Notes: generated by a model not told the origin, from the sequence alone. A DNA stretch of 64,000 nucleotides from Nitrospirota bacterium (GCA_963699545.1 CAVOUE010000006.1:1-64000); one strand, 5' to 3'. Shown: positions 4,601-45,321, numbered from the stretch's first letter. Program-made: numbers and translations.

Positions 4601-4620
4601 GATGTGTCCCTAATTATTTC
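4601..4620 (+). repeat. GGGATGTGTCCCT-family motif, copy 1
   Basis: GATGTGTCCCTAATTATTTC; related copies at 5479, 9846, 13725 and inverted at 15821. Confidence 0.75.
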
Positions 4621-4635
4621 CCGGGAGGTAACACA

Positions 4636-5436
4636 ATGAAAAAGGTACTTCTTGGAACAATGCTTTTGGCGTTGCTCATTGCAGTTCCTGTTCCAACAAT
4701 GGCTAGGGTGGATATAAACATTGGTATTGGTCTGCCGCCGCCCGTCGCATTTGCCGCACCACCGGAGTTGATAGTGCTGCCCGGCACGTATGTCTACGTC
4801 GCCCCGGAAGTGGAGATGGACCTCTTCTTCTGGAATGGTTGGTGGTGGCGTCTATGGGAAGGCCGGTGGTATCGCTCGCATTATTATAACCGGGGCTGGG
4901 GTTATTATAATACTGTCCCCACCTTTTATTTTGATGTAGATCCGGGGTGGAGAGGATACTACAGATCCCATACCTGGTATGGGCGGCCATGGAACTATGA
5001 ACGGATCTCTAACCAGCGAGTCCAGCAGAACTGGAAGACCTGGCAAAGTAATCGGCATTGGGAAAGGCGGGGAACCTGGGGCGTCCAGAGCTATCAACCC
5101 CGATCACAACAGCAGAGACAGGACTTTAGACAGCAAAGGCAACAGGAATATCACCAGAGGCCCGAGGTTCAGCAACATCAGCAGTGGCAGCAGCAGCAGA
5201 GGCAGCAGCAACAAAGACAGCCTCAGGGGAACGTTCAGCAACAGCAACAGAGGCAGCAGCAACAAAGACAACCCCAGGGGAACGTTCAGCAACAGCAACA
5301 GAGGCAGCAGCAACAACAAAAACAACCTCAGGAGAAAGTTCAGCAGCAGCAAAGACATCAGGCTGAGCAACCACAGCACTCTCAGCCTCAGGGAAGATCG
5401 GGCAAAGGAGAGGAAGAGAAACAGGAGAGAAGGTAA
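4636..5436 (+). CDS. Secreted Trp/Tyr-rich protein with Gln-rich repeat tail
   Basis: RBS GGAGG, signal peptide, WNGWWW-rich core, Q-rich C-terminus. Confidence 0.8.
   Translation: MKKVLLGTMLLALLIAVPVPTMARVDINIGIGLPPPVAFAAPPELIVLPGTYVYVAPEVEMDLFFWNGWWWRLWEGRWYRSHYYNRGWGYYNTVPTFYFDVDPGWRGYYRSHTWYGRPWNYERISNQRVQQNWKTWQSNRHWERRGTWGVQSYQPRSQQQRQDFRQQRQQEYHQRPEVQQHQQWQQQQRQQQQRQPQGNVQQQQQRQQQQRQPQGNVQQQQQRQQQQQKQPQEKVQQQQRHQAEQPQHSQPQGRSGKGEEEKQERR
5186..5350 (+). repeat. 51-bp coding tandem repeat (RQPQGNVQQQQQRQQQQ), about 3 copies
   Basis: GGGGAACGTTCAGCAACAG at 5226 and 5277 (period 51). Confidence 0.85.
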
Positions 5437-5478
5437 GGCGGGGAAAGGTTCCTGCGCGGATCGAGCGCATGAAGCTCA

Positions 5479-5500
5479 GGATGTGTCCCTGTAATTTCCT
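5479..5500 (+). repeat. GGGATGTGTCCCT-family motif, copy 2
   Basis: GGATGTGTCCCTGTAATTTCC. Confidence 0.65.
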
Positions 5501-5519
5501 CGTGAGCTGACGTACTGTC

Positions 5520-6701
5520 TTGTTTGATGGCGATATGAAATATAAAGCGCTGGCCTCTTCAGCCCCCTATCAAAGCTTTCAGCCGTTGTTGGACAGATTG
5601 AAGCTCACAGAGAATGAGCTCCTCGTTCTCAGCCGACACCGGGATTTCTTTATACGTGAGAAGGACGAGTTTGCGAAGGTCTTCTACGAATCCTTCCGTG
5701 CGCTGCCGGAGACCCACATACTGCTCGAACATTTCGGGAAGCCCGAACTCATGAAGCTCACCTGGGCTACGTGGTTTGAAAGGCTTTTCCGCGAAAACCT
5801 CGACTCGAACTTTATTCACTATCTGTGGAGGATAGGCCTGAAGCATGTGGAGATAAACCTGGATCAGCGCTACACGAGCTTTGGCTTCTCCCTTGTGCGG
5901 AGGTTCTGTCACCGACTTGCCCTCGAGGGCTTCCCGCCGCAGGTTGCCGTGGAGATCTTACCCGTAGTGGATAAGCTTGTGGATTCCTGCATCGTTGTCG
6001 AAACCAGCGCTTACATAGAGGCCACCGTTCGCTGCGATGTGGAGATCCTCAAGGGGATAGCCGACAAGATCCGGAATCCCGTAACCATAATAGGAGGCAA
6101 CCTCAGAAGGCTTCAGAGACGTATAGATCCGGAAGACTCCCTCTATAAGGATTACGAATTTCTCATCTCTTCTACCAACCGCTGCGAGGACATGATAGAG
6201 GACATAAACACGTATATCGAAATGTTCCAGCGCGAGGCGAGCTTCGAGCAGTGCATGCTTGAAACCGTTATAGAGAATATGCTTGACAGGCTGGCGGTTC
6301 GAAAGAAACTCGAAGGAGTAAAAGTGGAAGTCCTCCTGAGCCCCGATGCCCGCTTCGTGAGGGGTGACCCGACCGACCTTCGCCACCTCTTCTACCACAT
6401 CATAGAGAACAGCGTAGAGGCATCCCACGCTGCACAAAGTCCCCTGGTGCGCATAAGCTCTGTTCCGCAGGAAGACCCTCCACACACCGTGCGGGTAGAG
6501 GTGTTCAATAATGGCGAGGTGATAAACCTTGCGAATATTTCAGATATTTTCGCCCCCTTTTATTCAACAAAGACCAAGGGCTCGGGCCTGGGGCTTTCGA
6601 TAGCAAAACTTGCCCTGCGCAAGAACTTCGGTGAGATAGATTTCGAGCCTCTCCCTCAGGAAGGGACAAAGGTGTACATAACCCTCGAACGGGCGGACTG
6701 A
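5520..6701 (+). CDS. Protoglobin-coupled histidine kinase-like sensor; H-box His replaced by Asp
   Basis: Globin signature WRIGLKHVEINL; HisKA IADKIRNP; HATPase IIENS, PFYSTK, GSGLGL. Confidence 0.85.
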   Translation: MFDGDMKYKALASSAPYQSFQPLLDRLKLTENELLVLSRHRDFFIREKDEFAKVFYESFRALPETHILLEHFGKPELMKLTWATWFERLFRENLDSNFIHYLWRIGLKHVEINLDQRYTSFGFSLVRRFCHRLALEGFPPQVAVEILPVVDKLVDSCIVVETSAYIEATVRCDVEILKGIADKIRNPVTIIGGNLRRLQRRIDPEDSLYKDYEFLISSTNRCEDMIEDINTYIEMFQREASFEQCMLETVIENMLDRLAVRKKLEGVKVEVLLSPDARFVRGDPTDLRHLFYHIIENSVEASHAAQSPLVRISSVPQEDPPHTVRVEVFNNGEVINLANISDIFAPFYSTKTKGSGLGLSIAKLALRKNFGEIDFEPLPQEGTKVYITLERAD

Positions 6702-6793
6702 TCTCTCTTTTCGATGGGAATTCCCCGGAGCACCCTGCCGCTTGCAGATATCGGGGCAAATAATGTATCCTTGTTGTAAGGAGGTAAGGAAAC

Positions 6794-7049
6794 ATGCTTG
6801 CTAAGAAGACATCGAAAAACCAACTCACGCTGCCGAAAGAGATCGTCAAGGCATTCCCGGACGCCGAGTACTTCGATGTGTCGGTGAAGGAGCAGGAAGA
6901 TAGTCCTCATGCCGGTCAAAATAACCCCTGCCGATACGACCCTTGACGGTATAAGGGAAAAGATGGCAAAGCTGGGCATTATTGAAGATGACGTTGCAAA
7001 GGCGATTAAGTGGGCAAGAAAGAGAAAGACGCGTAAGAGTCGTCCTTGA
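6794..7049 (+). CDS. AbrB/MazE-type antitoxin, frameshifted
   Basis: Read by hand: MLAKKTSKNQLTLPKEIV...KIVLMPV...KAIKWARK; RBS upstream. Confidence 0.7.
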
Positions 7050-7440
7050 TACGAATGTCCTTATTTCATCAATCCTCTTCAGAGGTGAGCTGGCCGGAAT
7101 AGTCGATCTGTGGAAAAGGGGCAGGATTGTGCCCGTTGTTCTCAAGAGAGACTTTCGATGAATTCAGGACCGTCCTTGAGTATCCGAAATTCAGGCTCAC
7201 AGAGAGCGAGATAAAATCGATTATTGAGGAAGAGGTGCTTCCTTTTGTCGAGATAGTTGAGATAGCAGGCGAGAAGATGCACGAGTGTGCAAAGATTCCG
7301 ATGACGACAAGTTCGTTGCATGCGCCCTGTCCGCGTCGGCTGATTTCATCGTCAGCCGGGATAAGGACTTCTGTGATGTTGCCGCATACGGGACGATCAA
7401 GATCATACGGGCTTCGGATCTGTTGCGCATGTTGGATTAA
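7010..7440 (+). CDS. PIN-family putative toxin, frameshifted
   Basis: Read by hand: VRVVLDTNVLISS...YPKF...CKDSDDDKFVACALSASADFIVSRDKD. Confidence 0.75.
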
Positions 7441-7466
7441 ACAGTACCCTCCCCTCTTTGCCTGCC

Positions 7467-7495
7467 TTGACAACAACGATGAGCAGTTATACAAT
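7467..7495 (+). promoter_or_regulatory. Sigma70-type promoter of the vapBC-like module
   Basis: TTGACA-17 bp-TACAAT upstream of 7539. Confidence 0.7.
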
Positions 7496-7538
7496 ATTGC
7501 AATAACGTTTAACATATTATGAGAAAGGTTGGAGGAAT

Positions 7539-7766
7539 ATGGCTACGGTAAAAACCCTGTCCAAAGGACAAATCGTCATTCCCGCTGAGATCAGGAAGAA
7601 GCACCACATTGAGCCGGGGACGGAGATGCAGATCATGGAATACGGAGGCATAATCTATCTCATACCCCCTGTCAACGATCCGGTCAAGGCAGCCTGCGGC
7701 ATCCTGCCGGCCAGGCCGTCGCTTGCCGGCCATCTCCTGAAAGGGCGCAAAGGCGATTTCAGATGA
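7539..7766 (+). CDS. AbrB/MazE/SpoVT-type antitoxin
   Basis: TLSKGQIVIPAEIRKK signature; overlaps the toxin start. Confidence 0.9.
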   Translation: MATVKTLSKGQIVIPAEIRKKHHIEPGTEMQIMEYGGIIYLIPPVNDPVKAACGILPARPSLAGHLLKGRKGDFR

Positions 7767-8170
7767 CCCTCAAAGGGGCATATCTCTTCGACAGTCATGC
7801 CCTGCTCAAGTTCTTTCAGGCCGAGGCAGGACATGAAAAGGTCATGCGCCTCCTCGATCAGATACGGAAAGCGGGCGCGCAGAAGTATCTCAACGCCATC
7901 AATCTGGGAGAGATCATCTATGCGACAAAACGGGAATTCGGGGATCAGAAGAAGATCGAGGTGCTCGCCCACATCGAGCGCCTGAATTTCACTGTTCTCC
8001 CGGTGCCGAACAGTCTTATCTTCCAGGCTGCGGAATACAAAGCCGAGTTCGGCATCTCCTATGCGGACTGCTTTGCGCTCGCCTCGGCTGTTGAGCATAA
8101 AGCTCCGATCGTAACGGGCGCTCCGGAGTTCAAGAAGGTGGAGCATCTTGTGGAGATAGTATGGGTGTGA
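7763..8170 (+). CDS. vapC: VapC-family PIN toxin
   Basis: YLFDSHALL, INLGE, ISYADCFA, IVTG. Confidence 0.85.
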   Translation: MTLKGAYLFDSHALLKFFQAEAGHEKVMRLLDQIRKAGAQKYLNAINLGEIIYATKREFGDQKKIEVLAHIERLNFTVLPVPNSLIFQAAEYKAEFGISYADCFALASAVEHKAPIVTGAPEFKKVEHLVEIVWV

Positions 8171-8230
8171 TAGACAGACCGAAGGGAGAAACCTTCAGCC
8201 TAATTACCTTTTACTCTTTTAGGACACATC

Positions 8231-8283
8231 ATGCGTGATCACACGAAACTTCGGGCGTTTGAGATGGCTGAAGCGGCAGATAA
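8231..8283 (+). pseudogene. Four-helix-bundle (23S-IVP/bAvd-like) protein, N-terminal remnant
   Basis: MRDHTKLRAFEMAE resembles the typical N-terminus of this family; CCTTCAGCCT upstream. Confidence 0.55.
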
Positions 8284-8790
8284 AGAGTTCGAAAACTTGA
8301 AGTCACAAATTGTGATTTCAAGGTAGAGGGATGATGAAAGAACTTATTCTCGTTGAGATGATCGAAAGAAAGATTTATCTGATTCGCGGCCATAAGGTCA
8401 TGCTCGACAGTGACCTTGCGGAACTTTACGGGGTGCCTACGAGACGATTGAATGAGCAATTCAAACGTAACATTTCATGATTCCCCTCGGATTTCATGTT
8501 TCAGTTATCACCCGAAGAAGCTGAAAACTTGAGATCGCAATTTGCGACCTCAAGTTCAAGACATGGCGGCAGAAGATACCTTCCTTACGTTTTTACTGAG
8601 CAGGGTGTTGCTATGCTGTCAAGTGTTCTCAACAGCGAACGCGCCATTCAGGTAAACATCGCGATCATGCGGGCTTTCGTCAAGTTGCGCGAGCTGATGG
8701 TCACGCACAAGGACCTTGCCCGTAAGCTCACTGACATAGAGAAGAAATATGATTCGCAGTTCAAGGTTGCTTTCGATGCGATCCGGCAGC

Positions 8791-9076
8791 TTTACCCCGT
8801 TAGAGATTACAGCCTATGTACTATACTTACGTAATTCAGAGTGAAAAGGATAAGCGATTCTATACGGGGTTCACAAGGGATTTACGGAACCGCTTGAACG
8901 AACATAATAATGGACAAGTCCCCTCGACAAAAAATAGAGGCCCTTCGAAATTGATTTATTATGAGGCATGCTTGATCAGCAGGATGCCACAGCGCGGGAG
9001 AAGTATCTAAAATCAGGGATGGGGAAGCGCTACCTGAAGAACAGGCTGAAGCGGTTCCTATCTCTAACGGGGTGAA
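8791..9076 (+). mobile_element. Inverted-repeat-bounded GIY-YIG mini-element
   Basis: TTTACCCCGTTAGAGAT (8791-8807) and ATCTCTAACGGGGTGAA (9060-9076), 16/17 inverted match; interrupts ORF6N. Confidence 0.75.
8816..9075 (+). CDS. Small GIY-YIG nuclease, frameshift near 8972
   Basis: MYYTYVIQS...FYTGFT.DL..RL.EHN.G...STK...YYEAC, then [26 protein letters not shown]. Confidence 0.85.
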
Positions 9077-9220
9077 TGATACCGCTGGAGAAGAAGAAGA
9101 GGAACGATCGGATTTCGGAGAGCGGATTGAGAGGATGCCTCAGCCTATGTGCCTGATTGCAGCCTTCAGCCTTTAGTCTATGTTCTAATTTACTTCAGTC
9201 TTCAGCCTATGTACCTTCTT

Positions 9221-9262
9221 AATTGCCAAAATTGTAACAATTAACTACAATAGGGCCGTTGG
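9221..9262 (+). repeat. Repeated promoter-like segment, copy 1 of 3
   Basis: AATTGCCAAAA...TACAATA.GGCCGT; also at 12392 and 13501; TTGCCA-17/18 bp-TACAAT. Confidence 0.65.
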
Positions 9263-9340
9263 GACTTTCATACGGGAAGGGTTGACGCATTGTCAATAAT
9301 GAATTAAAGGAATATAATAACTGAAGATCGGAGGTGCAGT

Positions 9341-9529
9341 ATGCCCAAGGCAAGAGGGATGACCGTGGATGAGATAGAACAGATAGTCGAGCAGAAAATG
9401 CTTGAAATTATTGGCGACCCGGATTCAGGGCTTCATCTAAAGAAGAAATTCAGGACACAGCTGGAACAGAGACTAAAGAAACCATCGAGAAGAATTTCCC
9501 ACGAAGAGGTATTAAGAAGATTTGCCTAA
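9341..9529 (+). CDS. Putative antitoxin
   Basis: Small ORF overlapping the RelE start; DPDSGL, ISHEEV. Confidence 0.75.
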   Translation: MPKARGMTVDEIEQIVEQKMLEIIGDPDSGLHLKKKFRTQLEQRLKKPSRRISHEEVLRRFA

Positions 9530-9776: not shown

Positions 9777-9845
9777 CAAACTTGTTGTCAGGAACGGCGA
9801 AGAGGAACTATTCACGTCTCACGGCCGTTCCGGATAGAGGGGGGA

Positions 9846-9873
9846 AAAATGGGATGTGTCCCTAGTTATTTCC
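9846..9873 (+). repeat. GGGATGTGTCCCT-family motif, copy 3
   Basis: AAAATGGGATGTGTCCCTAGTTATTTCC. Confidence 0.75.
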
Positions 9874-9935
9874 TCCTCAGCGAGTCGCCCGAGGCGACCT
9901 GCGTGCGGACAGCCCTTATCCTGAACAACCCTTCT

Positions 9936-10923: not shown

Positions 10924-10999
10924 CGTCAATTCCTCCATGTCTCGATGATCTCTATCCACCACGCGGTCTTGTTGTCCGGTCTTGAGCATAGTGGTCCGG

Positions 11000-12190: not shown

Positions 12191-12460
12191 TTCAGTTCCT
12201 CCATGCCGGCAAAATTTCGTTCTCCTTCAGGCCGGCAATTGCAAATCCTGATCGCCGGTTCTCTCCCTCATACTTATAGTATACCCCAAAAAGGTCTCCT
12301 CCGCATGCCTGCAAGATTCGCTTCGGCGGATCGACTGAAGTGAAGCTGTAGGCCTTCGGTCTTCAGCCGATTCACCTTAAGCGCGTGCGCAAATTGCCAA
12401 AACCATCGGTAATTTAATACAATACGACCGTGGAGAGACGGAAGGTGGTCAGACTGAAGG

Positions 12461-12610
12461 TGGTCACTGAGGGAACCGCACTATCAGCTGACTTTGTCGA
12501 AACGCCTGGGCTTCCTTTGCAACCAGGATGCTTTACTGATTGAACCAAAGATCGTCGAAACCGAGAAGATCGTGAATGGCTTGATCCGGGCATTGCGTGA
12601 AAGCGAATAG
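12461..12610 (+). pseudogene. Four-helix-bundle protein, C-terminal remnant
   Basis: SLREPHYQLTLSKRLGFL...ETEKIVNGLIRALRESE*; followed by CCTTCAG/CTTCAGT heptamer repeats 12625-12648. Confidence 0.65.
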
Positions 12611-12761
12611 ATGAAGGACTTTGGCCTTCAGCCTTCAGTCTTCAGTCTATGAACCTTTTGAGTTCATCCCCAGCCATTCTTGAACGGTTCAGGAAAAATG
12701 CAGAAGATGTTGGATTGAATAGAAACAGCCCTCTCTACCTGCCCGCCTTGTCGGCGACGCT

Positions 12762-13037
12762 TCAGGCGATCTTCACTTCCAGTCTCTTACCAAGGGCATG
12801 GGCGACCTTCTCCAGTGTGGATAGCTTGATATCCTCTGCATGGTTCTCGATCCGTGAGATAGCGGTCTTCTTAGTCTTCAGTCTCTGGGCAAGCTCTTCC
12901 TGTGTCAGTCCTGCCGTCTCACGGGCCTGCTTGAGCACCACGCCGATCTTGAACTGTTCGTACCCCTCGTCATAGCCTGCGGCGAATGCCTTGTCTCTCT
13001 TCTTTCTCTCATGGACATATTTCTTCAGATCGCTCAT
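12762..13037 (-). CDS. HigA-type Cro/C1 HTH antitoxin
   Basis: GLTQEELAQRLKTKKTAISRIEN...STLEKVA. Confidence 0.9.
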   Translation of the reverse strand: MSDLKKYVHERKKRDKAFAAGYDEGYEQFKIGVVLKQARETAGLTQEELAQRLKTKKTAISRIENHAEDIKLSTLEKVAHALGKRLEVKIA

Positions 13038-13389
13038 CTCTCTGTCCTCCTGTGCATATAGTTTTTCTGTAAGCCTCAGCCCGCTCAATCTCCCGCTGAG
13101 GAGTCTTCTGCGTCTTCTTGATCAAGCCGTGGGTTAGGACAACAACGGAATTCCCGTCGAAGAAGCAGAGTACTCGGTACGCATTTGAGCCAAGCTGTAT
13201 CCTGCACTCCCATATCTCCTCAGTGCTGACGAGTTTCTTGAAATATGTCGACGGCACGACATCGAGGTCCTCAACCAGGCTCAGCACCCATGCAACTTTC
13301 TGCGCCACCTTAGCGAACAGCGAATCGAGAAACTCCTGCATCGGGCATTTGCCGTCAGCTGTCCTGTAGAAGATTACTGCCTTACCCAC
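13009..13389 (-). CDS. HigB/Gp49-like RelE-superfamily toxin (toxin-first order)
   Basis: FYRT.DG.CP..EFL, IWECRI, YRV, LTHG..KKTQKTP..EIERA. Confidence 0.85.
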   Translation of the reverse strand: MGKAVIFYRTADGKCPMQEFLDSLFAKVAQKVAWVLSLVEDLDVVPSTYFKKLVSTEEIWECRIQLGSNAYRVLCFFDGNSVVVLTHGLIKKTQKTPQREIERAEAYRKTICTGGQRDERSEEICP

Positions 13390-13391
13390 GG

Positions 13392-13419
13392 CATATGTTA
13401 ACTTGCATGTTAACATATG
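13392..13419. promoter_or_regulatory. Perfect palindrome, likely higBA operator
   Basis: CATATGTTAAC-ttgcat-GTTAACATATG directly upstream of the toxin GTG. Confidence 0.65.
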
Positions 13420-13780
13420 TCAAGTCTGGCGTGAAAATTGTGGCCTTAAAGAGGGCCGCTGAGAGCATCGAAAATACTTGTCTGAACTCGGCACTAGTTG
13501 AATTGCCAAAACCATAGACAATTTAATACAATACGGCCGTGGGTAAGATTTATTCCGAATGTCGGAGTCGGTCTTAGGGGGTAAGGCAGATTGGATAATG
13601 AGTTAACATTTCTCACCTGCGGATCACACGCAGCTATCCTTGAACGAGTCAGAAAAAATATAGAAGATGGTGGATTAAATAGAAACAGCCGCCTTTTCAC
13701 CATCCATTGGAAAGGCTATCGAGAAAATGGGATGTGTCCCTAATTATGTCTCTAAATAGAAGCTGCCCCATTGCCCTGCC

Positions 13781-14209
13781 ATGAGTACCATTCTACGGCA
13801 AAATCTTGTTCAAGTGGCATTGGAGTGGCAGCGGCAATATGGAGTGGCACCGTCCATCACTTCAGCTCTTTCGGAATATGATGCAGCAAAATTGCTAGGA
13901 ATGTCTGACAAAGAATATTCAAGCTACATGCAAGATAAAACTGCCGTCAGCAGGGGCCATGATTTCATTTATGAAGGAATTCGTTACCAGATAAAAGCAC
14001 ATCGCCCAAGTGGCAAACGAGGCAGCTTCATTACAAACGCTGGCAAAGCTCGCAATTATGACTGGGACAGGCTGATATGGATCCGCTACAACACAGAATA
14101 TGAAATTCAGGAGGCGTGGTCTTGGGACCGAGACAGATACGCTGAGGCCTTCAGTGCAGTTAAGCGAATATCTCCTGCAGATTTGAGGAAGGGGAGAAAG
14201 TTAGCATAA
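13781..14209 (+). CDS. Hypothetical protein, possibly PD-(D/E)XK nuclease-like
   Basis: SEYDA...GHDF....RYQIK spacing resembles an E..D..QxK catalytic set. Confidence 0.55.
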   Translation: MSTILRQNLVQVALEWQRQYGVAPSITSALSEYDAAKLLGMSDKEYSSYMQDKTAVSRGHDFIYEGIRYQIKAHRPSGKRGSFITNAGKARNYDWDRLIWIRYNTEYEIQEAWSWDRDRYAEAFSAVKRISPADLRKGRKLA

Positions 14210-14270
14210 TTATCATGGTGATACTAACTTTTTTCTGTGTAGAACCTGAACCAAGATCTATGACTGTGAT

Positions 14271-14456
14271 ATGGCAAAGAAGAAGATAACTGTAGGAGAT
14301 TACGACAATTTCATTAGGATAGCTGATAACAGGATATGCCATGTGAGGCCTAAGGGAACGGACGGTACGGACCTTATGGAAACACCTCAGGGGACCTGGG
14401 AAAAGAAGAAATGTTACTGGCTCAACGCTAGCTACATTCTGAAGCAAGTTCAGTAA
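14271..14456 (+). pseudogene. C-terminal remnant of a Sau3AI/MutH-like endonuclease
   Basis: ICHVRPKG....METPQG...KKCYWLNASYI resembles the C-terminus of that family. Confidence 0.5.
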
Positions 14457-14496
14457 CACTAATCGAGCAGAATAAGGGGACAGGCTACTTCACTAA

Positions 14497-14865
14497 ATGA
14501 CAACCGCCACCCTTAGAGTTATCTTCTCCCGCACCGCCGGCCACTGCCACTTCTGCGGTGACCCGCTCATCTTCGGCAAGCGTGGGCTGAAACACCGCAA
14601 AAACGAAAACGGGGCGTGGGAGGTTGATCACATCATCCAGAAGGACAAGGGCGGCAAGAGTTTAGTCGACAATTACCTCCCCGCCTGCGTCCGCTGCAAT
14701 CGCCTCCGCTGGCACCGAAAGGGTAAGGATTTGCGAGAGCTTCTCCTCCTCGGTATCATAGGCACAGGAGAGATTAGGAAAGGGACCAAAACGGGGGAAA
14801 GGATTCTGGAATTGAAGGATAAGAGGAACAAAGAGAATAAGAAAAGGAGAACACAAGTCAAGTGA
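14497..14865 (+). CDS. HNH endonuclease
   Basis: CHFCG...WEVDHII...GG....NYLPACVRCN. Confidence 0.9.
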   Translation: MTTATLRVIFSRTAGHCHFCGDPLIFGKRGLKHRKNENGAWEVDHIIQKDKGGKSLVDNYLPACVRCNRLRWHRKGKDLRELLLLGIIGTGEIRKGTKTGERILELKDKRNKENKKRRTQVK

Positions 14866-15764
14866 TCATCAAGAAAAGAGACTCAAAAGAATCAGATATT
14901 AAAGAACTCACTTCGCTCTTGACCTTGCCTCTTCCGGACTTCAAGAGATTTCTTATCGAGCGTGAATTACGCTTTGTCAAATCCGGTGACCGGGGCGAGA
15001 CCGACGCGGCATATTTTATCGATTTCCATTTTGCTTCATCCAAAAGATGGGCAGTCATTCACGACTTGCGCCTTGAGCATCGAGATCGCGTCGCCCAGAT
15101 CGATCACCTGCTCATCAATCGGTGTTTTGATATTTACATTCTCGAAACCAAGAACTTCTCTTACGGTGTGAAAATCACGGAAACGGGAGAATTCCTGGTC
15201 AACTACAACAACAAATACTTTGCCATCGAATCACCTATCGAACAGAACAAACGTCATCAGATTGTTCTTGAGCAGGTCTTAAAAAAATATGACGTAATGC
15301 CACAACGCCTTGGTATTCCAATTTCACCTTCCTTTCACCCCTATGTTCTTGTGTCTCCGAAATCGCAGGTGAGCCGCCCCTCTAAAGCTGCATTTGATAC
15401 CAGCATGGTGATCGCGGCGGACACCCTCAGGACTGCCATTGATAAGAGAATAGACGAGATGAATAACATTTCAGTGTTAACCACAGCGAGCAAGTTCTCA
15501 TCATTTGAGTCAGTGGTGGAAGCGGCTAAACGGCTTGCCTCACTTCACAAGCCAATGAAGATAGATTATCGGAAACGCTTTGGTATCGAAGATAATCCGC
15601 AGCACAGCCGAACGCCTGAATTAGTTCAACCAGAATCTGCTAAACGAAATTACTGTTTTAAGTGCAAAAAGCCCGTCACCGAGAAGGTGGCTAACTACTG
15701 CGCGGACTTTAAGAAGAAATTCGGCGGCAAAGTCTATTGTTTCGATTGTCAAAAAGAAATTTAG
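14862..15764 (+). CDS. NERD nuclease-related domain protein with C-terminal Cys cluster
   Basis: GDRGE, IHDLRL, AQIDHLLI, LETKN, SPIEQN.RH; CFKC...CFDCQ. Confidence 0.9.
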   Translation: MIIKKRDSKESDIKELTSLLTLPLPDFKRFLIERELRFVKSGDRGETDAAYFIDFHFASSKRWAVIHDLRLEHRDRVAQIDHLLINRCFDIYILETKNFSYGVKITETGEFLVNYNNKYFAIESPIEQNKRHQIVLEQVLKKYDVMPQRLGIPISPSFHPYVLVSPKSQVSRPSKAAFDTSMVIAADTLRTAIDKRIDEMNNISVLTTASKFSSFESVVEAAKRLASLHKPMKIDYRKRFGIEDNPQHSRTPELVQPESAKRNYCFKCKKPVTEKVANYCADFKKKFGGKVYCFDCQKEI

Positions 15765-15860
15765 CCCTCCCAAGGAGGCATAATGCCGTACACGCTGCAT
15801 CCTTCAGAAAATGAATTATAAATTAGGGACACATCCCATTTATCTTGGAAATCAAAAAAT

Positions 15861-15956
15861 GGGACAGGCTTCTCTAAATCACTCTGCCTTGATCTCTATC
15901 AGGTTCCCGAAAAAATCCCTGAGAAAATAAACTGTCTTCTCTCCCGCCCTGCCCTC
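15861..15956 (-). repeat. Copy A of the VOC gene 3' end plus GGGACAGGCT motif
   Basis: 15879-15956 matches 17562-17639 at 72/78 with no indels. Confidence 0.95.
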
Positions 15957-16036
15957 GGCGAAGTTTCAGTCTTTGGCACTATAGAGAAGGGACAGGGTTT
16001 AAACTGGCCATTTTTGGTATACTTATCGATAGGTAG

Positions 16037-16297
16037 ATGGGTAAAGACACCTTAGATAAAGTGCTGTCGGGGCTCTCCGACAAGAATATCAGGTTCGAGG
16101 ATTTGAAGAAGATCATCATGGATTTTGGTTTTGGTTGCCGCATAAAAGGCGGTCATCATATTTTCGCGAAGGAAGGTATTGCCGAGATTATCAATCTTCA
16201 ACCGCTTAAAGACGGAAAGGCAAAACCATATCAGGTCAAACAGGCGAGGAATCTGATACTGAAATATAAACTCCATAAGGGGGTAAAGAATGTATAA
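16037..16297 (+). CDS. hicA: HicA family toxin
   Basis: RIKGGHHIF, INLQP, GKAKPYQVKQ. Confidence 0.85.
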   Translation: MGKDTLDKVLSGLSDKNIRFEDLKKIIMDFGFGCRIKGGHHIFAKEGIAEIINLQPLKDGKAKPYQVKQARNLILKYKLHKGVKNV

Positions 16298-16499
16298 GTA
16301 CGAAGTGATCGTTTACTGGAGCGACGAGGATGAGGCGTATATCGCCGAAGTTCCTGAACTGCCCGGATGCATGGCAGACGGCCCAACCTATGAAGAGGCC
16401 ATAAAAAACGCCCAGGTTGTTATCTCAGAGTGGATTGAAACGGCAAAAAAACTGAAGCGCGAGATACCAATACCAAAAGGCAAATTGACCTACGCATAG
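16290..16499 (+). CDS. hicB: HicB family antitoxin
   Basis: YWSDEDEAYIAEVPELPGCMADG.T.EEA...IPIPKG. Confidence 0.9.
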   Translation: MYKYEVIVYWSDEDEAYIAEVPELPGCMADGPTYEEAIKNAQVVISEWIETAKKLKREIPIPKGKLTYA

Positions 16500-16539
16500 G
16501 GAATAAACCGCCCTGAAACTGTTATAAGGGCATGCAAAA

Positions 16540-16652
16540 GGGACAGGCTGCTTTCAATCACTGTGCCTTGATCTCTATCAGGTTCCCGGAAAGATCCCTG
16601 AGGAAATAAACTCTCTTCTCTCCCGCCCTGCCCTCTATAGCTTCGACTCCCG
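16540..16652 (-). repeat. Copy B of the VOC gene 3' end plus GGGACAGGCT motif
   Basis: 16558-16652 matches 17562-17656 at 89/95 with no indels. Confidence 0.95.
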
Positions 16653-16671
16653 ATCAATGCTATAATTTGTT

Positions 16672-17325
16672 ATGAAAACATCCGGTCGTTATGACGCATC
16701 GGGGCTGAGCGAATCCCAATTCGAGCCGGGCTCGCGCGGGCGTGTACTCAGAAACTTCTTGCACATAACTCGCAAGCGCGAGATGGATATCATTGAGGCT
16801 GAACGATATGCCCTTGTCCAGCCAAAACTCATGGGCATGTTCACGAAAGGTCATCGTTTTACTGCAGCGGATATCTGCGAGGTCCATAGAGCATGGCTCG
16901 GTGACGTGTATGAGTGGGCTGGCCGATGCAGGCAGGTGAACGTATCAAAGGGCGGTTTTCCCTTTGCCACGGCGCGGCATGTCCCAAAACTTATGAAGGA
17001 CTTCGAGAAAGGGCCGCTAAAGAAATATACCCCGTGCCTCTTCAAACCGGATGAGGAGATTGTCACAGCACTTGCTGTCGTCCATACCGAACTCATGCTG
17101 ATCCACCCTTTCCGCGAAGGTAATGGCAGGGTTGGAAGATTACTTTCCGTTCTGATGGCATTTCAGGCAGGGCTGCCCGGTCTCGATTTTACCGGGATTC
17201 GTGGGAAGAAGAGAAAAGAATATATTGCAGCTGTTCAGTCAGGCTTAGATCAAAATTATGAGCCTATGAAGAAGGTGTTTAGGCCTGTTCTTTCCCGGAC
17301 GAGGCGCACGCTTGCGCAGCGCTGA
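16672..17325 (+). CDS. fic: Fic family AMPylase toxin
   Basis: Canonical HPFREGNGRVGR motif. Confidence 0.9.
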   Translation: MKTSGRYDASGLSESQFEPGSRGRVLRNFLHITRKREMDIIEAERYALVQPKLMGMFTKGHRFTAADICEVHRAWLGDVYEWAGRCRQVNVSKGGFPFATARHVPKLMKDFEKGPLKKYTPCLFKPDEEIVTALAVVHTELMLIHPFREGNGRVGRLLSVLMAFQAGLPGLDFTGIRGKKRKEYIAAVQSGLDQNYEPMKKVFRPVLSRTRRTLAQR

Positions 17326-17485
17326 AAGCAGTCTTGTGTTTCGTGACATTTTTCATGGCCTGCTTGGCAGCGGCCTGGACCCCTTCGATAGATGCCGAAG
17401 AAACAGTCACGGTCTCAACGATCTTCATACGCGTTTCGGGGTCTTTAAGAAAAGGGTTGGTTTCAAGTAATGATTTCTTGGACAT
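17279..17485 (-). CDS. Putative Fic antitoxin (VbhA/FicA-like), convergent
   Basis: 68 aa containing SASIEG, matching the (S/T)xxxE(G/N) inhibitory helix. Confidence 0.6.
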   Translation of the reverse strand: MSKKSLLETNPFLKDPETRMKIVETVTVSSASIEGVQAAAKQAMKNVTKHKTAFSAAQACASSGKEQA

Positions 17486-17561
17486 ACAGTATTATACCAT
17501 TTAATAGTCGCACCCCGAAAGACAGAAATAAAAGAGAAAGAAGGAAACAGGCTTCTCTAAA

Positions 17562-17984
17562 TCACTGTGCCTTGATCTCTATCAGGTTCCCGGAAAGATC
17601 CTTGAGGAAATAAACCGTCTTCTCTCCCGCCCTGCCCTCTATCACTTCCACTCCCGCCCTGCGTGCCTTCTCCAGGGTCCCGGGAAAGTCCTCGACGAGT
17701 AAGCCGATGTGCCTGAGCTCCGGTGAAGGAGGCAGGCATTCCGGACAGATGAAAACCTCGACCTTTATCCCTTGTCCTTCGAAGACAAGCACCTTTATCT
17801 CCCGGGACACAGAAAATAGCTGTTCCGCAAGCACGGCGGCAACAATGAATTCCCTCGTCTTTTCGAGCCCGAGAAGGTCGGCGTAGAACCTCACCGCCTT
17901 CTCTTCGCTCTCATTGACTATGCCGACATGATTCAAGACCATACAATTATATGTAGTATACCCCATAATCTCTGAAGCGCACAT
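17562..17984 (-). CDS. VOC/glyoxalase family protein
   Basis: LNHVGI...FY.DLLGL...VEVF...HIGL...YFLKD.SGNLIEI; true start probably near 17942. Confidence 0.85.
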   Translation of the reverse strand: MCASEIMGYTTYNCMVLNHVGIVNESEEKAVRFYADLLGLEKTREFIVAAVLAEQLFSVSREIKVLVFEGQGIKVEVFICPECLPPSPELRHIGLLVEDFPGTLEKARRAGVEVIEGRAGEKTVYFLKDLSGNLIEIKAQ

Positions 17985-18088
17985 TCGACCGGGAGAAACA
18001 AAGATAACTTACCGCCATTGCCGCATTGAGTCACGCGACAACAGCATATGGTATAATTCATCAAATACATTTCTGGCGAGGGAAGAAG

Positions 18089-18274
18089 ATGGGAGTTGCA
18101 GCGAAAAAGATAAACCCCGAGGATTTCATCCTCTCTGCCCTTTCTCCTGAAGACCGGCTGAACGCAGCCTTTGACGTGGCCCGGGAGGCATTCAGGAAAA
18201 GCAAGCTGTCGGTGAAGGACATTGACAACGCGGTGAAATCGGTAAGGAGAAAGGCCTACGAGAAGAAGAAGTAA
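18089..18274 (+). CDS. Putative antitoxin
   Basis: Small basic ORF (DIDNAVKSVRRK) directly upstream of a PIN gene. Confidence 0.65.
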   Translation: MGVAAKKINPEDFILSALSPEDRLNAAFDVAREAFRKSKLSVKDIDNAVKSVRRKAYEKKK

Positions 18275-18638
18275 GGTTGTCGTAGACACCGGCGTCCTTA
18301 TCTCCGCGTTTGCCTTTGGAGGTGTTCCTGCGTCAGCGTTAAAGAGGGTATTTGCTGAGTCAACTATCTTTGTATCACCGGCGCTTCTCAACGAGTACCG
18401 CGAAGTTCCACTAAAGCTTGAATCAGAAGGGAAGATCGATCACCTCCAGCTCAAAGCTCTGCTTGCCGGTATCGCGGCCTTCGTAACGTCAGTGACGCTC
18501 GTTCATCCAGGACAGAAGCTCCTCATCTGCAGGGACCCTAAGGACGACTTCCTCATCACCGGAGATAAGGACCTCGTCGAAATAGATACCCTGCCTTTTA
18601 GACTGAAGATTCTATCGCCGGGCGCATTTTTGAAATAA
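18258..18638 (+). pseudogene. PIN-family toxin with lost start codon and probable internal deletion
   Basis: Open frame from ACG: RRRSKVVVDTGVLISA...ICRDPKD/DFLITGDKDL; absent from the ORF track. Confidence 0.7.
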
Positions 18639-18855
18639 CAAGCCAGCCTGTAAAAGGGCTGTGGGGACAGACTTGCTTATTGACATTCACCCCTATTGGA
18701 GGGAACTGTCGGCTAAGCCTCCTCGATGCCACATTGTATTCCTACACTCTTCCCACCTTTCCTTCCTCCAGGTCTCGCAGCGCCGGAGACACAGCTTCAA
18801 ATAGGCCTGTCTCAAAGAACGAAAAAACGCTATAATGTTCCCTGAGGACGGTACG

Positions 18856-19227
18856 ATGGACGCTCATGAAACACAGGGCCAGGGAACACCTTCCCCGGCA
18901 GACCCGCTCAAGCAGGCAAAGACGGTCACGATGATCGTCTACGCCCTCCAGGCAGGCTCCTTCGTCCTTGGCGTCACGATCATCGCGGCGATCATCATCA
19001 ACTATCTCAAAAGAGAAGATGTTCAGGGCACCTGGCTTGCCTCCCACTTTCGCTGGCAGATCAGGACCTTCTGGTTCGGCCTCCTCTGGGGCGCAGTCGG
19101 CGCCCTCACCGCGCTGGCGGGCATAGGCTTCGTTCTCCTCGGCGTCGACCTTATCTGGGTCATCTACAGGATCGTGAAGGGCTGGCTGCGGCTGAGCGAG
19201 GGAAGGGAAATGTACGCCGCGGCCTGA
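18856..19227 (+). CDS. DUF4870-like membrane protein
   Basis: IINYLKR....TWLASHFRWQIRTFW...YRIVKGW. Confidence 0.85.
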   Translation: MDAHETQGQGTPSPADPLKQAKTVTMIVYALQAGSFVLGVTIIAAIIINYLKREDVQGTWLASHFRWQIRTFWFGLLWGAVGALTALAGIGFVLLGVDLIWVIYRIVKGWLRLSEGREMYAAA

Positions 19228-19403
19228 ACGATCAGGGGCACCTCCCCTTTATTGTAAACCAAGGTTTTGCCGGGTTTCTCTTGTCAATCTGATTCTTAAA
19301 TTGTTATTCTTATAAAATATGACGATCTCTATCAATTCACTTGGCAATGACATTCCCGCGCGGCATGCGGTGAGTGTCGCCATACAATGCAAAGGACGAT
19401 GAT

Positions 19404-20579
19404 ATGTTACACCTGAAACGGCAGCTGCCCTACCGGCCCACGGAAAGGATGAACGTCGTAAGCTACCCGATACGCGACATCGTAATGGAGGCGAAGCGCG
19501 AGGAGGCAAAGGGCAAGAAGATGATCTATCTCAACATCGGCGACCCGCCCCAGTACGGCTTCCCGCCGTTCCGGGTGATAGCCGAGAGGGTGAAAAACGC
19601 GCTCGACGAGAACTGGAAAGGGTACGCCCCTTCCGAGGGCGACGAGGAGCTCAGGAATACCGTGGCAAAGATCGAGAAGTGCAGACCCGAGGATGTGTTT
19701 GCCGTTGCCGGCCTCACCGAGGGAATAGACTTCTTCTTCCATTCGTTCATCGGTTTCGGGGAGAAGGTGCTTCTTCCGAACCCGGTATATCCCCTCTACC
19801 TGAGCAAGGCGAAGCAGTTCGAGGGCGACAGCGTATTCTACCGGCACGATGAGAAGGGTCAGATAGACGTGGGAAATCTGGCGAAGAAGATCGAGGGCGC
19901 AAAGGCGATGGTGATCATCAACCCGAACAACCCGTTGGGCTCCGTCTACTCGGAAAAGAACCTCTCGGAGGTCGTGAAGCTCTGCGCTGAGTTCGATGTC
20001 CCCATATTTTACGACGGCTCCTATGACCAGTTGATACTGGAAGGCAGACAGGTGGACTTCAGAAAGATAGCAAGGGGCAAGGTGCCCTTTATATACGGCA
20101 GTTCGCTCTCAAAAGACTTCAGCTATACCGGCGCACGACTGGGATGGGTGACGTTCCATGGCGATAGATGGGCGGAGGTCAAGAATGCATTCTTTCTGCT
20201 CTGCAACCAGCGCCTCTCCGTAAACTGGGAGTACCAGAAGGCGGCTGCTGCCGCGCTGGTGCACCCGTCATATCCGGCATACATCGCAAACATAAAGGCG
20301 AAGCTCATCGAACGAAGGGACACGTTTGTGAAAATGGCAGGGAAGCTGCCGCTCTCATTCCCCGTTCCAAAGGGCGCGTTCTACGCATTCATTAAGATAG
20401 AGACAACGAAATGGAAGAAGGACGTGCACTTTGTGCGGGCTGCGCTGAAAGAAGGCGTCGTCTTTGTCCCTGGTTCAGGATTCGGACGGCAGGAGGATGG
20501 AGTGTATTTCAGGACCACGTTCCTGCCTGAGCCGCGCATAATAGAAGAGGCCTTCGCTAAGATCAGACGGATACTATGA
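19404..20579 (+). CDS. Class I/II PLP aminotransferase (AlaA/AspAT-like)
   Basis: LNIGDP, INPNNP.G, SLSK...TGARLGW, PKGAFY, VPGSGF. Confidence 0.9.
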   Translation: MLHLKRQLPYRPTERMNVVSYPIRDIVMEAKREEAKGKKMIYLNIGDPPQYGFPPFRVIAERVKNALDENWKGYAPSEGDEELRNTVAKIEKCRPEDVFAVAGLTEGIDFFFHSFIGFGEKVLLPNPVYPLYLSKAKQFEGDSVFYRHDEKGQIDVGNLAKKIEGAKAMVIINPNNPLGSVYSEKNLSEVVKLCAEFDVPIFYDGSYDQLILEGRQVDFRKIARGKVPFIYGSSLSKDFSYTGARLGWVTFHGDRWAEVKNAFFLLCNQRLSVNWEYQKAAAAALVHPSYPAYIANIKAKLIERRDTFVKMAGKLPLSFPVPKGAFYAFIKIETTKWKKDVHFVRAALKEGVVFVPGSGFGRQEDGVYFRTTFLPEPRIIEEAFAKIRRIL

Positions 20580-20637
20580 ACAGCTTCTTTACGGGATCGT
20601 AGAATACAGAGGGGCACAGAGCCGGCCATGCCTGCAC

Positions 20638-21375
20638 TTATAGTTTCATCCCCTTGAGCACCGCTTTTTTCCCGCCAAACCCAGGGCGCTGCTCGACAGA
20701 AAACCCCGCAGCGGTAAGCCCCCGCCGAACAGCTCCGGCAACAGTAAAGGTGGCGCAGGTCCCGCCGGTCACTGTTTTTTCTCCTATCGCCATAAGAAGC
20801 TCACGCCGCCACATGTCAGGGTTCTTCTTCGGTCCATGACCATCAAGGAACCATGCGTCACAGGGAATGGTGAGTGCATGGACCATTTCGAGGGCCTCCC
20901 CGATCCAGAGATTCAAGGTCAGGATGCCGAAAGGCCGGGTGAGTTGTATCCGGTGCCACCCCGGTCTGGAAATCTCGACGCGGCGGTAGGCCCGGACAAG
21001 CAGATCAATAAGCGGACCGGCCTCTGTTCTGAATCCCCCGAGAATGGACGCCATCCGCTCGGAAGTGACCGGATGCAGCTCAACGGAATTGTAGGTGATC
21101 GCCCTCTCCGTGATGCCGCGACTTGTCCAGAAAATCCATCAGGGCGATGAGGAGACGGCCCGCGCCGAAGCCTGTTTCACCTATCCTGAGCTCTTTCCTC
21201 CCCGGCCGGGCGGAAAGGATATCCATGATGCCGGCGCCCTGAAAGAAGATGTGCTTCGCTTCTTCAAGGGCATTGACCACGTCGAAATAGCGGTCGTCAT
21301 ACTGTTCGTTCACAAGATAGGGAGGGATCTGCACGGTCAGGTCAGGGAGATGATCATTGTCTGGGTCTCGGTCAT
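20638..21375 (-). CDS. Stand-alone MnmC methyltransferase domain (MnmD-like), frameshifted
   Basis: YDDRYF, IGETGFGAG, DAWFLDG..P.KNPDMW, ATFT.AG.VRRGL. Confidence 0.8.
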
Positions 21376-21437
21376 AGAAACCTCACATGCAATTTTACCA
21401 CGGGAGAAACAAAAAGGGGACAGGCTGTTTTAACAGG

Positions 21438-21498
21438 GGACGCAGCATCACACCTTTCATCACTCTTTAAGCTCCTCCTTGCCTCGTACTATCCCTGC
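21438..21498 (+). repeat. Direct repeat left of the relBE-like module (partner at 22278-22340)
   Basis: First 37 bp match at 33/37; GGGACAGGCT at 21417 just upstream. Confidence 0.85.
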
Positions 21499-21632
21499 TC
21501 TGCCAATAGTGTGAATATAGATTCGTGTACATGGTGTTCCGTCTGACAGGAATATGCGTGTTTACCTCTTTCCCTGTCTTTTGTATGGTGTGCTATTTGT
21601 GTTACACTATGAAAAAGACAAAGGAGGTGTGT

Positions 21633-21860
21633 ATGCCTACGAAAAACCCCCGCATAAATGTCGTTTTGAATCCGCGTATTTATGCTGATGTGCAGACCCT
21701 TTCAGAAGCAAGAGGGCTTTCGATGTCTTCCGTTGTCGAGGACCTCATCGAAGACGCGCTGGAGATTCAGGAGGACCTCGCTTTGGCTGCGCTTGCGGAT
21801 GAGAGGAAGAAGTCTCTCAAAAAGTCGGAGCTTGTTTCTCATAAAAAGGCCTGGAGCTGA
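21633..21860 (+). CDS. RHH-type antitoxin
   Basis: MPTKNPRINVVL...SMSSVV.DLI..ALE..ED. Confidence 0.8.
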   Translation: MPTKNPRINVVLNPRIYADVQTLSEARGLSMSSVVEDLIEDALEIQEDLALAALADERKKSLKKSELVSHKKAWS

Positions 21861-21861
21861 A

Positions 21862-22143
21862 GTGTCGTTTACTATCAGCTATCACAAGGAAGTTGTGAAG
21901 CATGATATCCCTGCGTTACCCGCTGCTATGAAGCTTCGGATAAAGAGCACTATCGAAACAAAGCTTACCACGCATCCCGAACAGTATGCCGTGCCGTTGA
22001 GAAGGACGCTGAAAGGATACTGGAAGCTCCGCGTCGGCGACTACCGTGTTGTTTTTGAATTCGACCGTTCGATAATCATAGTTCTTGGTATCGGCCACCG
22101 GAAGGACATCTATGATCGAGTGAAAAGCCGCATCGGTGCTTAA
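21862..22143 (+). CDS. RelE/StbE family toxin
   Basis: PLRRTLKGYWKLRVGDYRVVF...IGHRKDIY. Confidence 0.9.
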   Translation: MSFTISYHKEVVKHDIPALPAAMKLRIKSTIETKLTTHPEQYAVPLRRTLKGYWKLRVGDYRVVFEFDRSIIIVLGIGHRKDIYDRVKSRIGA

Positions 22144-22385
22144 ATTGGATGTTCTTTCACTTGTCAGCAGTGCTTGTTCGAATGGATACTGAGAGTATTC
22201 GCGCCAAAATAAACAACGCCGCCTGAAAAGAGCTATCCCGCTGCTTCTCCGTCCATCAGGGAGAAGAGCCGTCCAGAGGACGCAGGATCACACCCTTCAT
22301 TCCTCTTTAAGCTCTCCCCCTCTTCTGCTACTATATCTGCAATGACTCCCAAGAATACATATATCTGCTTCCCCTGTCTCGCACG

Positions 22386-44121: not shown

Positions 44122-45321
<1,200 letters not shown>

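Follow-up and report, generated by a model that had tools for sequence, protein, structure and literature searches.

Two repeat families linked to RAYT transposases punctuate a toxin-antitoxin and nuclease island in a Nitrospirota genome

In Escherichia coli and Pseudomonas, the gene for the REP-associated tyrosine transposase (RAYT, or TnpA-REP) is said to be flanked by copies of its own repetitive extragenic palindromic (REP) sequence, an arrangement credited to Nunvar in 2010 and Ton-Hoang in 2012. Di Nocera et al. (2013, PMC3733652) give GGGGWSAS as the motif of the repeats that flank the RAYT-like TIRYT genes, and in PMC3390384 the mobile elements and strain-specific genes of the Pseudomonas fluorescens group are placed in "REP deserts". 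Here we describe a 17.7-kb island from a Nitrospirota bacterium, rich in toxin-antitoxin (TA) modules and nuclease genes, whose junctions carry copies of two short motifs, called A and B. The island lies at positions 4601-22340 of the window, which is the first 64 kb of contig C6 and starts at the contig end. The source is a metagenome-assembled genome (G000) of 3.04 Mb in 13 contigs, 87% complete with 5% contamination.

The motifs are real and non-random, and two families of RAYT-linked repeats account for them; the island itself is a mosaic punctuated by REPs. The account that we favour, at a probability of roughly 0.55, is that of a variable TA and nuclease island whose gaps were colonised by two RAYT-type repeat families, the copies then serving as homology or as breakpoints.

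The 13-nt form of motif A, GGGATGTGTCCCT, is exact in the window at 9851(+), 13729(+) and 15825(-), and is found with one mismatch at 5478 and two at 4599. At up to two mismatches there are 8 matches in the window where 2.3 are expected, a number reached in 0 of 100 shuffles. The copies of the island are as follows.

4599-4621, plus strand: truncated REP A between a BON-domain gene and a Q-rich open reading frame (ORF); two mismatches, nhmmer E 0.01
5478-5492, plus strand: partial A before a protoglobin histidine-kinase gene; one mismatch, weak at nhmmer E 1.9
9844-9873, plus strand: REP A between convergent RelE and DUF2950 genes; exact 13-mer, nhmmer E 8e-8, small hairpin of z -1.8
13721-13751, plus strand: REP A with 12 nt of a 5' flank common to a sub-family of A; exact, a metagenome match beginning at 13709
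15818-15845, minus strand: inverted REP A after the NERD gene; counterpart of the REP that precedes HicAB in two other contexts

Across G000 the 12-mer GGGATGTGTCCC occurs in 32 exact copies, with about 0.4 expected by arithmetic and 0 found for the reversed control. The extended consensus reads gAAAAaT-GGGATGTGTCCC-yAnTTATTT, and a profile search (nhmmer, E<=0.01) finds 38 copies, 32 of them outside ORFs of at least 100 aa, which span 86.5% of the genome. Copies also sit among housekeeping genes (between mutL and miaA, between a HAD gene and tgt, and after an ABC-F gene), often forming inverted pairs with 126-177 bp between the copies. Inverted copies of A at C3:267478 and C3:268223 enclose a 223-aa Y1_Tnp ORF, RAYT1 (C3:267512-268180), in whose protein the HVH and SRYHS motifs are readable. 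On NF047646, the NCBIfam model for REP-associated tyrosine transposases (cut-off 80), RAYT1 reaches 73.6 bits, against 24.9 on the IS200 model; a phmmer search of PDB gave no match at E<=0.001. When G000 is set beside 40 relatives, the 12-mer is found in 27 of the 41 genomes (reversed control 0-1), and G000 is the richest of them, the others holding 13 exact copies or fewer. Seven relatives carry eight inverted A pairs at a spacing of 699-733 bp, with Y1_Tnp present in two of the three intervals checked. Because an inverted pair surrounds RAYT1 and the same pairs recur in relatives, motif A is the REP of an intact RAYT encoded at another locus of the same genome, a REPtron arrangement.

Motif B (GGGGACAGGCT; core GGGACAGGCT) is exact in the window at 14477, 15861, 16540 and 21417. 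Two further exact matches lack the longer consensus: one, at 14064, falls within an ORF, and the other, at 32369(-), within the TamB gene of the housekeeping half. One-mismatch variants stand at 15989 and 18664, the copy at 17543 has two mismatches, and a sequence at 1024 is a looser look-alike. At up to one mismatch the window holds 20 matches against 5.0 expected, and none of 100 shuffles reached 20. The variant at 15989 was rejected as a junction motif, being part of the HicA promoter region, which is conserved on contig C1 and in the relative G009. In the rows below, D1 is a 110-nt repeat that will be described with the module flanks.

14468-14497, plus strand: B just upstream of the HNH gene; exact, B with the HNH start recurring at C1:47840-47766
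15852-15880, plus strand: B opening D1 copy 1; exact
16532-16560, plus strand: B opening D1 copy 2; exact, 10 nt right of the left breakpoint (16529) of a metagenome indel
17543-17563, plus strand: degenerate B, 10 nt past the glyoxalase stop codon; weak at E 8.8
18640-18673, plus strand: B-like inverted doublet (AGCCTGT...GGGGACAGACT) right after the PIN_3 stop codon; right breakpoint of the same indel (18701) 28 nt beyond
21407-21435, plus strand: B abutting the left 41-nt repeat of the ParDE module; exact

G000 has about 12 copies of B that share GAAAAG-GGGACAGGCT-ryTTT; 10 of the 12 are outside ORFs of at least 100 aa, and 10 of the 12 are in clusters that also contain A. The B 18-mer is present in 55 of 301 genomes of the order. 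In relatives, inverted pairs of B occur about 710 bp apart, and all four that were fetched enclose Y1_Tnp ORFs of 222-226 aa. The one B-type protein scored, from G061, reaches 87 bits on NF047646 (cut-off 80), and a truncated RAYT in G040 is likewise flanked by B. These pairs identify B as the repeat that borders a second clade of RAYTs, one encountered in relatives. The 87%-complete assembly of G000 yielded no RAYT flanked by B, and the best tblastn identities there are 30% and 39%; with no close homologue of the B-type RAYT there, B is either an orphan in this genome or its gene falls within the missing 13%.

The GGGACA core common to A and B is explained by a fit to GGGGWSAS, the motif of RAYT- and TIRYT-flanking repeats. 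It is matched by B (GGGGACAG), by the opposite strand of the CCCC variant of A (GGGGACAC) and by the flank of a further transposase gene, RAYT2 (GGGGTCAG). RAYT2, at C6:294k (locus L002, C6:292800-295500), is a 282-aa ORF that scores 93 bits on the RAYT model and has inverted GGGGTCAGGTCTTGT flanks. It sits in an insertion of about 2.4 kb with a second copy of the 3' end of a P-type ATPase gene, and positions 1092-1182 of the window are 76% similar to the DNA just past that ATPase gene. RAYT1, RAYT2 and the G061 RAYT all score 25 bits or less on the IS200 model, and HVH or HFH and RY motifs were read among the RAYT proteins.

Compared with the REPtrons of PMC3733652, A is similar in being a short extragenic repeat with a small hairpin and dozens of copies, often in inverted pairs, in having a single-copy Y1/HUH transposase gene between inverted copies, and in being most numerous in the genome with the intact RAYT. 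It differs in that there are about 40 copies here rather than hundreds, in its short hairpin (a GGGA/TCCC stem of just 4 bp with a TGTG loop; z about -1.8 with flanks) and in the concentration of copies in TA and defence islands. In place of the GTAG of a REPtron, A has nTAG, the tetranucleotide at its end being ATAG, TTAG, CTAG or GGGG. B has GTAG only in its GGCTAC variants, which read GTAGCCTGTCCCC on the other strand, and other variants have GCAG or similar. In a comparison of flanking repeats, the TIRtrons of the same paper resemble B and the RAYT2 flank, both of which fit their consensus, in forming a moderately abundant family of singles, dimers and clusters. Unlike a TIRtron, B is dispersed here without its own transposase. 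The REPINs of Pseudomonas fluorescens (PMC3116915, PMC3390384) are resembled by the inverted doublets, that is, the A pairs at 126-177 bp and the B doublets 27-45 bp apart in G259 and G031. Unlike REPINs, the island copies are mostly single and in one orientation, and the A pairs show no conservation of their spacers. A single B folds into no hairpin, and long hairpins arise only from its inverted doublets in relatives.

Both families are clustered rather than evenly spread. The 17.7-kb span holds 4 of the 38 A copies against 0.22 expected (Poisson P about 8e-5) and 4 of the 12 B copies against 0.07 expected (Poisson P about 9e-7). Thus 8 of 50 copies fall in this single island, and the remaining clusters lie in TA and defence stretches, which is the opposite of the Pseudomonas pattern. 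The original prediction, made from the window alone, had proposed that the motifs are RAYT-associated, and the genome-wide scan bears this out for A through the RAYT in G000 and for B through those of relatives; the clustering that it had anticipated is also found. Its motif positions hold, except that 15989 belongs to a promoter region and 1024 is only a look-alike. Missed there were the exact B at 14064 and the exact B in the TamB gene of the housekeeping half, where no motif had been noticed.

ORFs and domains of the island were assigned with Pfam and NCBIfam profiles, which confirm the predicted eight TA-type modules together with HNH, NERD and a 64-aa GIY-YIG fragment. They are given here with the glyoxalase gene that lies among them.

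6794-7522, plus strand: antitoxin-PIN_3 module, PIN gene split or truncated; PIN_3 27.2 bits on 6982-7158
7539-8170, plus strand: AbrB/MazE-PIN module; profile match, TIGR01439
9341-9776, plus strand: RelB-like/RelE module; profile match
12762-13416, minus strand: HigB (Gp49)/HTH antitoxin module; profile match
14497-15764, plus strand: HNH and NERD nuclease genes; B at the left edge, inverted A and B at the right
16037-16499, plus strand: HicAB module; profile match, copies 89-90% identical at C1:47124-47634 and in G009:C266
16672-17325, plus strand: Fic gene; profile match
17562-17981, minus strand: glyoxalase gene; Glyoxalase domain over residues 16-136 of 139
18026-18638, plus strand: antitoxin-PIN_3 module; PIN_3 28.2 bits
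21525-22143, plus strand: RHH-ParE (ParDE) module; profile match, copy 92% identical at C3:617556-618151

The modules occupy both strands, the TA pairs have upstream regions of their own, and in kind the modules are common TA and defence genes with promoters of their own. In the 18026-18638 module the PIN frame is open from 18246, with no ATG, GTG or TTG start before 18492. Split genes are also seen outside the island: RNase J, ornithine carbamoyltransferase, a histidine kinase and a fatty-acid hydroxylase are each present as two overlapping ORFs (window 41494-44253, 52256-53708 and 2229-3031). These are more likely indel or frameshift errors of the assembly than pseudogenes, and since they fit assembly frameshifts, the split genes within the island are not taken as decay. 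Among the nucleases, a 61-aa ORF at 14271-14456 has similarity (E 1.4e-9) solely to the C-terminal end of Sau3AI-family restriction endonucleases and is a gene remnant immediately left of the B at 14477. From 24 to 64 kb the window is made up of housekeeping genes (BamA, TamB, GlnD, FtsK, RNase J, NusA, RecG and IlvBHD). The absence of integrases and transposases stated in the original prediction is upheld by profile searches, in which neither Phage_integrase nor Y1_Tnp has a match in C6:1-64000, and by the 61 ORFs of 1-24.7 kb and the 40 ORFs of at least 80 aa in 24-64 kb, among which no transposase or integrase family is found. An Rfam scan of 1-24 kb at E<=1 gave no match.

Four modules are flanked by diverged direct repeats, as had been predicted; D1 surrounds HicAB and Fic, and the other repeats border HigBA and ParDE. 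The rows of these repeats are given below.

15864-15973, plus strand: D1 copy 1, B and a fragment of the glyoxalase 3' end (read on the minus strand); folding not above shuffles
16543-16652, plus strand: D1 copy 2, B and a fragment of the glyoxalase 3' end
17547-17656, plus strand: D1 copy 3, the true glyoxalase 3' end and a degenerate B; domain over residues 16-136 of 139
12392-12730, plus strand: P190 copy a, left repeat of HigBA, with an interrupted or diverged middle; 12392-12433 and 12664-12730 match copy b
13501-13700, plus strand: P190 copy b, right repeat of HigBA; promoter-like TTGCCA-18 nt-TACAAT, then a conserved element of about 150 nt
21434-21474, plus strand: left 41-nt repeat of ParDE; 88% identical to 22274-22314
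22274-22314, plus strand: right 41-nt repeat of ParDE

The three copies of D1 (110 nt; 15864, 16543 and 17547) consist of B and the last 95 nt or so of the minus-strand glyoxalase gene, with a fixed end at B and a variable other end (93 vs 110 nt). In the same way, B with the first 65 nt of the HNH gene is repeated at the end of contig C1, where a second HNH fragment brackets an Mrr-type nuclease gene. Sub-families of A also share 5' flanks, for example the R110 element of about 110 nt, which has 8 copies. The upstream region of HicAB directly follows a REP-A-like sequence on C1 and in G009, and in the window B and D1 are interposed. The "direct repeats" are mostly a REP that carries 40-120 nt of its neighbourhood, for instance the end of the glyoxalase gene. 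Because the copies are constant at the REP end and differ in how far they extend, and because B and D1 are interposed upstream of HicAB, we read most junction repeats as a mobile or duplicated unit of REP and short flank, not as target duplications from the arrival of modules. The direct repeats of 40-110 nt are duplicates of the ends of nearby genes or of a second dispersed element, P190. A fixed end with a variable extent of adjoining DNA is also known from the IS91/ISCR elements, which capture DNA by one-ended rolling-circle movement and encode, inside the element, large HUH proteins that are Y2-type or otherwise distinct. Unlike theirs, the flanks carried here are just 40-120 nt.

The repeats of HigBA comprise 42 nt plus 67 nt of P190. 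This sequence occurs three times in G000 (two in the window and one at C5:415030-415148), four times in G001 (C24, C70 and C79) and singly in G002:C235, G009:C271 and G014:C30, and it is multi-copy in several genera of the family. Its element of about 150 nt ends in GTCCCyTTTT and has no Rfam match. P190 could be a small RNA gene or a mobile promoter-leader. A structured RNA was rejected on account of a modest 5' hairpin and little covariation, and comparison of P190 with the non-coding end of the genome's IS110 element gave no similarity. A different repeat, CTTCAGyCTTCAGyCTATG, is found at 9160-9226, 12354-12378 and 12629-12666, upstream of RelBE and around the first P190 copy.

Two other places in G000 have a similar layout. 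The end of C1 (46800-48748) is a paralogous piece of the island that holds an HNH 5' fragment, the Mrr-type nuclease, B with an HNH 5' fragment, and HicAB; the C-terminal zinc ribbon of the Mrr-type nuclease is the same as that of the NERD protein, and the assembly probably broke here within repeats. A second array at C4:85722-91250 (locus L020) begins with an intact fdhD gene, followed by four copies of its 3' end (45-121 nt). One such copy marks every boundary between the Phd-PIN_3, NTP_transf_8, BrnT and AbiTii modules, and either a REP A or an inverted B adjoins it.

On the account that we favour, a Y1/HUH transposase would nick and rejoin single-stranded copies of its own repeat and so spread it. 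The copies would land mostly just past stop codons, in dispensable DNA, and would often bring along 40-120 nt of neighbouring DNA, with the end at the repeat fixed and the other end variable. Copying of this kind would yield most of the diverged direct repeats, such as B with the glyoxalase 3' end and B with the HNH 5' end. Scattered in this way, the repeats could act as portable homology or as fragile sites, and host recombination would swap, delete or duplicate the blocks between them. As host recombination acts between scattered repeats, the repeats would come to stand at block junctions.

Comparison with relatives, paralogous loci and metagenomes gives a mixed picture of whether breakpoints coincide with the motifs, which the original prediction had expected them to do. 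One case in favour is the following segment.

16530-18700, strand not applicable: B, D1, Fic, glyoxalase, antitoxin-PIN_3 and the B doublet; 55 other letters instead in soil-metagenome contigs

This 2,171-bp indel is seen as a joint from 16529 to 18701 in two contigs of one soil sample (X1, 619 nt, and X2, 570 nt), each end being less than 40 nt from a copy of B. Three other joints (13746 to 15821, 15841 to 13723, and 15843 to 9844) were set aside as repeat cross-matches, having REP-only sides of 20-26 nt. In G012 (C110), the one relative with a usable flank comparison, B stands 17 nt past the aminotransferase gene, which is conserved; a different gene comes next, and after it the zinc-ribbon gene, again conserved. 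The three contexts of HicAB (window, C1:47124-47634 and G009:C266), 89-90% identical, lose their homology at REP-A-like sequences. A 1.27-kb block, 97.7% identical at C4:87541-88810 and C5:353578-354850, ends exactly at REP A; it contains a 120-aa ORF and an NTP_transf_8 gene and lies between the left part of R110 and REP A, which are contiguous in four other R110 copies. Against these cases, the two ParDE copies, 92% identical, break off sharply at a distance of 45-150 nt from any motif, an A-like match is lacking at 18 of 20 loci with module homologues in relatives, and 28 of 29 HicAB loci in other genomes have no motif near the module. The assemblies of the same-genus genomes G001 and G002 and of 38 further relatives are fragmented; what they have in common with the island is limited to single modules, dispersed over contigs at 65-91% identity. 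In G001, G040 and G013 the small conserved gene at 18026 shows no synteny with the glyoxalase gene.

Several considerations weigh against the favoured account. Each step of the proposed mechanism is inferred, with no transposition, cleavage or recombination event observed. B alone folds no hairpin, and the assembly has no B-flanked RAYT. The tandem gene-end repeats (glyoxalase here, fdhD five times at C4) look like the att-site duplications of serial site-specific integration. B is beside only one copy of the 41-nt ParDE repeat, and the P190 repeats carry no REP. Any intergenic element among modules of 1 kb will fall at a module junction by default. The indel rests on contigs of one soil sample, and the 55 letters of its joint are unread. 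Finally, since Pseudomonas REPs avoid mobile and strain-specific regions, as PMC3390384 reports, passive build-up in an island is not the expected default.

Alternatively, a RAYT acting in trans may excise REP-bounded segments and re-insert them beside other REPs, so that RAYT-type Y1/HUH enzymes would assemble and reshuffle TA and defence genes into REP-delimited arrays, a single-stranded DNA analogue of the integron. We consider this improbable, although slightly more probable than the other alternatives. From 14477 to 18664, same-orientation copies of B mark off units of 1384, 679, 1004 and 1121 bp, and what the soil contigs are without is exactly two such units, from the B at 16540 to the doublet at 18664. 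In each of its three contexts HicAB has a REP-A-like sequence to the left and to the right at a conserved spacing, and homology stops there; the two-gene block of 1.27 kb is found at two loci between the left part of R110 and REP A. RAYT1 looks intact, in the very genome that tops the A counts. On the other hand, no circular junction or RAYT-dependent event was seen. Sequencing runs contain 0.05-0.08 of the sampled words, none reaching a tenth, and uncovered parts are not counted as absence. The repeats of 40-110 nt also fit poorly, as to our knowledge no Y1/HUH cut-and-paste enzyme, known RAYTs and IS200/IS605 included, duplicates that much target when it moves an element. Added to this are the sharp ParDE ends away from motifs, the many HicAB and other module loci elsewhere that lack them, and the missing cognate RAYT for B. 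The addition of modules one at a time by an enzyme in trans, as originally predicted, is unsupported; A also occurs among housekeeping genes, homologues in other genera are without motifs, and the ParDE ends are off motif. Cassette capture driven by a RAYT is possible, but nothing ties the transposase to the placing of genes, and no paper on RAYT- or REP-bounded TA cassettes was found within the full-text terms and library covered.

Movement of passenger modules in trans by a distant transposase, with REPs as targets, has a parallel in ISPpu9, an IS110-family element of Pseudomonas putida that inserts into REPs and forms modular circles (PMC12288879). Unlike here, the ISPpu9 enzyme is a DEDD transposase. 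G000 does have an IS110-family element with a DEDD transposase of 361 aa, in two 100% identical copies at C3:425000-426546 and C6:403383-404929. It was rejected as the trans-acting enzyme: the C3 copy starts 43 nt from a REP A and the C6 copy is without a REP in its vicinity, and neither is linked to the island.

Slightly less probable again is the serial integration, by a distant tyrosine recombinase, of integrase-less elements similar to cis-mobilisable elements (CIMEs) into att sites overlapping the glyoxalase and fdhD 3' ends, with the REPs as bystanders or as part of the att site. This explanation predicts what both arrays show, namely an intact gene at one end and same-orientation copies of its 3' end at each later junction, three for glyoxalase and, for fdhD, one intact end plus the four fragments of 45-121 nt, and six Phage_integrase-family matches are available elsewhere in the genome. 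It falters on the lack of an integrase in or beside either array: no cognate tyrosine or serine recombinase was found in the 64-kb window or beside the C4 array, serine recombinases not having been sought genome-wide. Two "att" sequences would need two specificities. D1 and the fdhD-end repeats have at most one copy in each of the 40 relatives, none of which has more than one copy of either. Moreover, the four fdhD fragments share 60 nt past the stop codon that the intact copy does not have, which a simple series of attL and attR sites does not predict.

A still more doubtful proposal is that the motifs are immobile here, acting as terminator- or operator-like parts of the modules and moving along with them. 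Its appeal lies in the layout of A (an A-run, a small hairpin and a T-run, usually after stop codons) and in the stop codons of three PIN toxin genes that precede B (C4:87343, C5:351230 and window 18640); REPs are moreover reported in PMC3733652 to lie mostly downstream of coding regions and to occur as RNA elements. However, A and B flank RAYT genes as inverted pairs in many genomes, the module homologues of other genera are without motifs, and the stem is just 4 bp in A and absent in B.

TA-rich arrays of units of about 1 kb are typical of sedentary integrons, but a chromosomal integron remnant (CALIN) of attC-bounded cassettes with its integrase off the contig, which the recurring junction sequence, the lack of a recombinase nearby and the start of the window at a contig end could suggest, is largely refuted: no integron integrase IntI exceeds the TIGR02249 cut-off in the 87%-complete assembly (best score 70.8 bits vs 265), D1, the one junction repeat folded, has no attC-like fold in the shuffle comparison used (no better than shuffles on either strand, z 0.13-0.53), the modules are on both strands, and the junction sequences are RAYT-linked. 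The integron identity was accordingly rejected, and the description "integron-like without attC or IntI" suits the layout and does not establish a mechanism.

How TA and defence genes gather in islands that have no recombinase of their own is an open question, for which this island is a concrete test case. It offers two families of RAYT-linked repeats, and for one of them the same genome encodes an intact transposase. They sit at block junctions, and at least one natural indel and a module in three contexts have their limits at the repeats. Should the copies do no more than mark permissive DNA, this would be an ordinary REP system in a new phylum, yet one contrary to the distribution in Pseudomonas. 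If it is true that the transposase or its repeats drive exchange, the island would represent a new route of gene capture.

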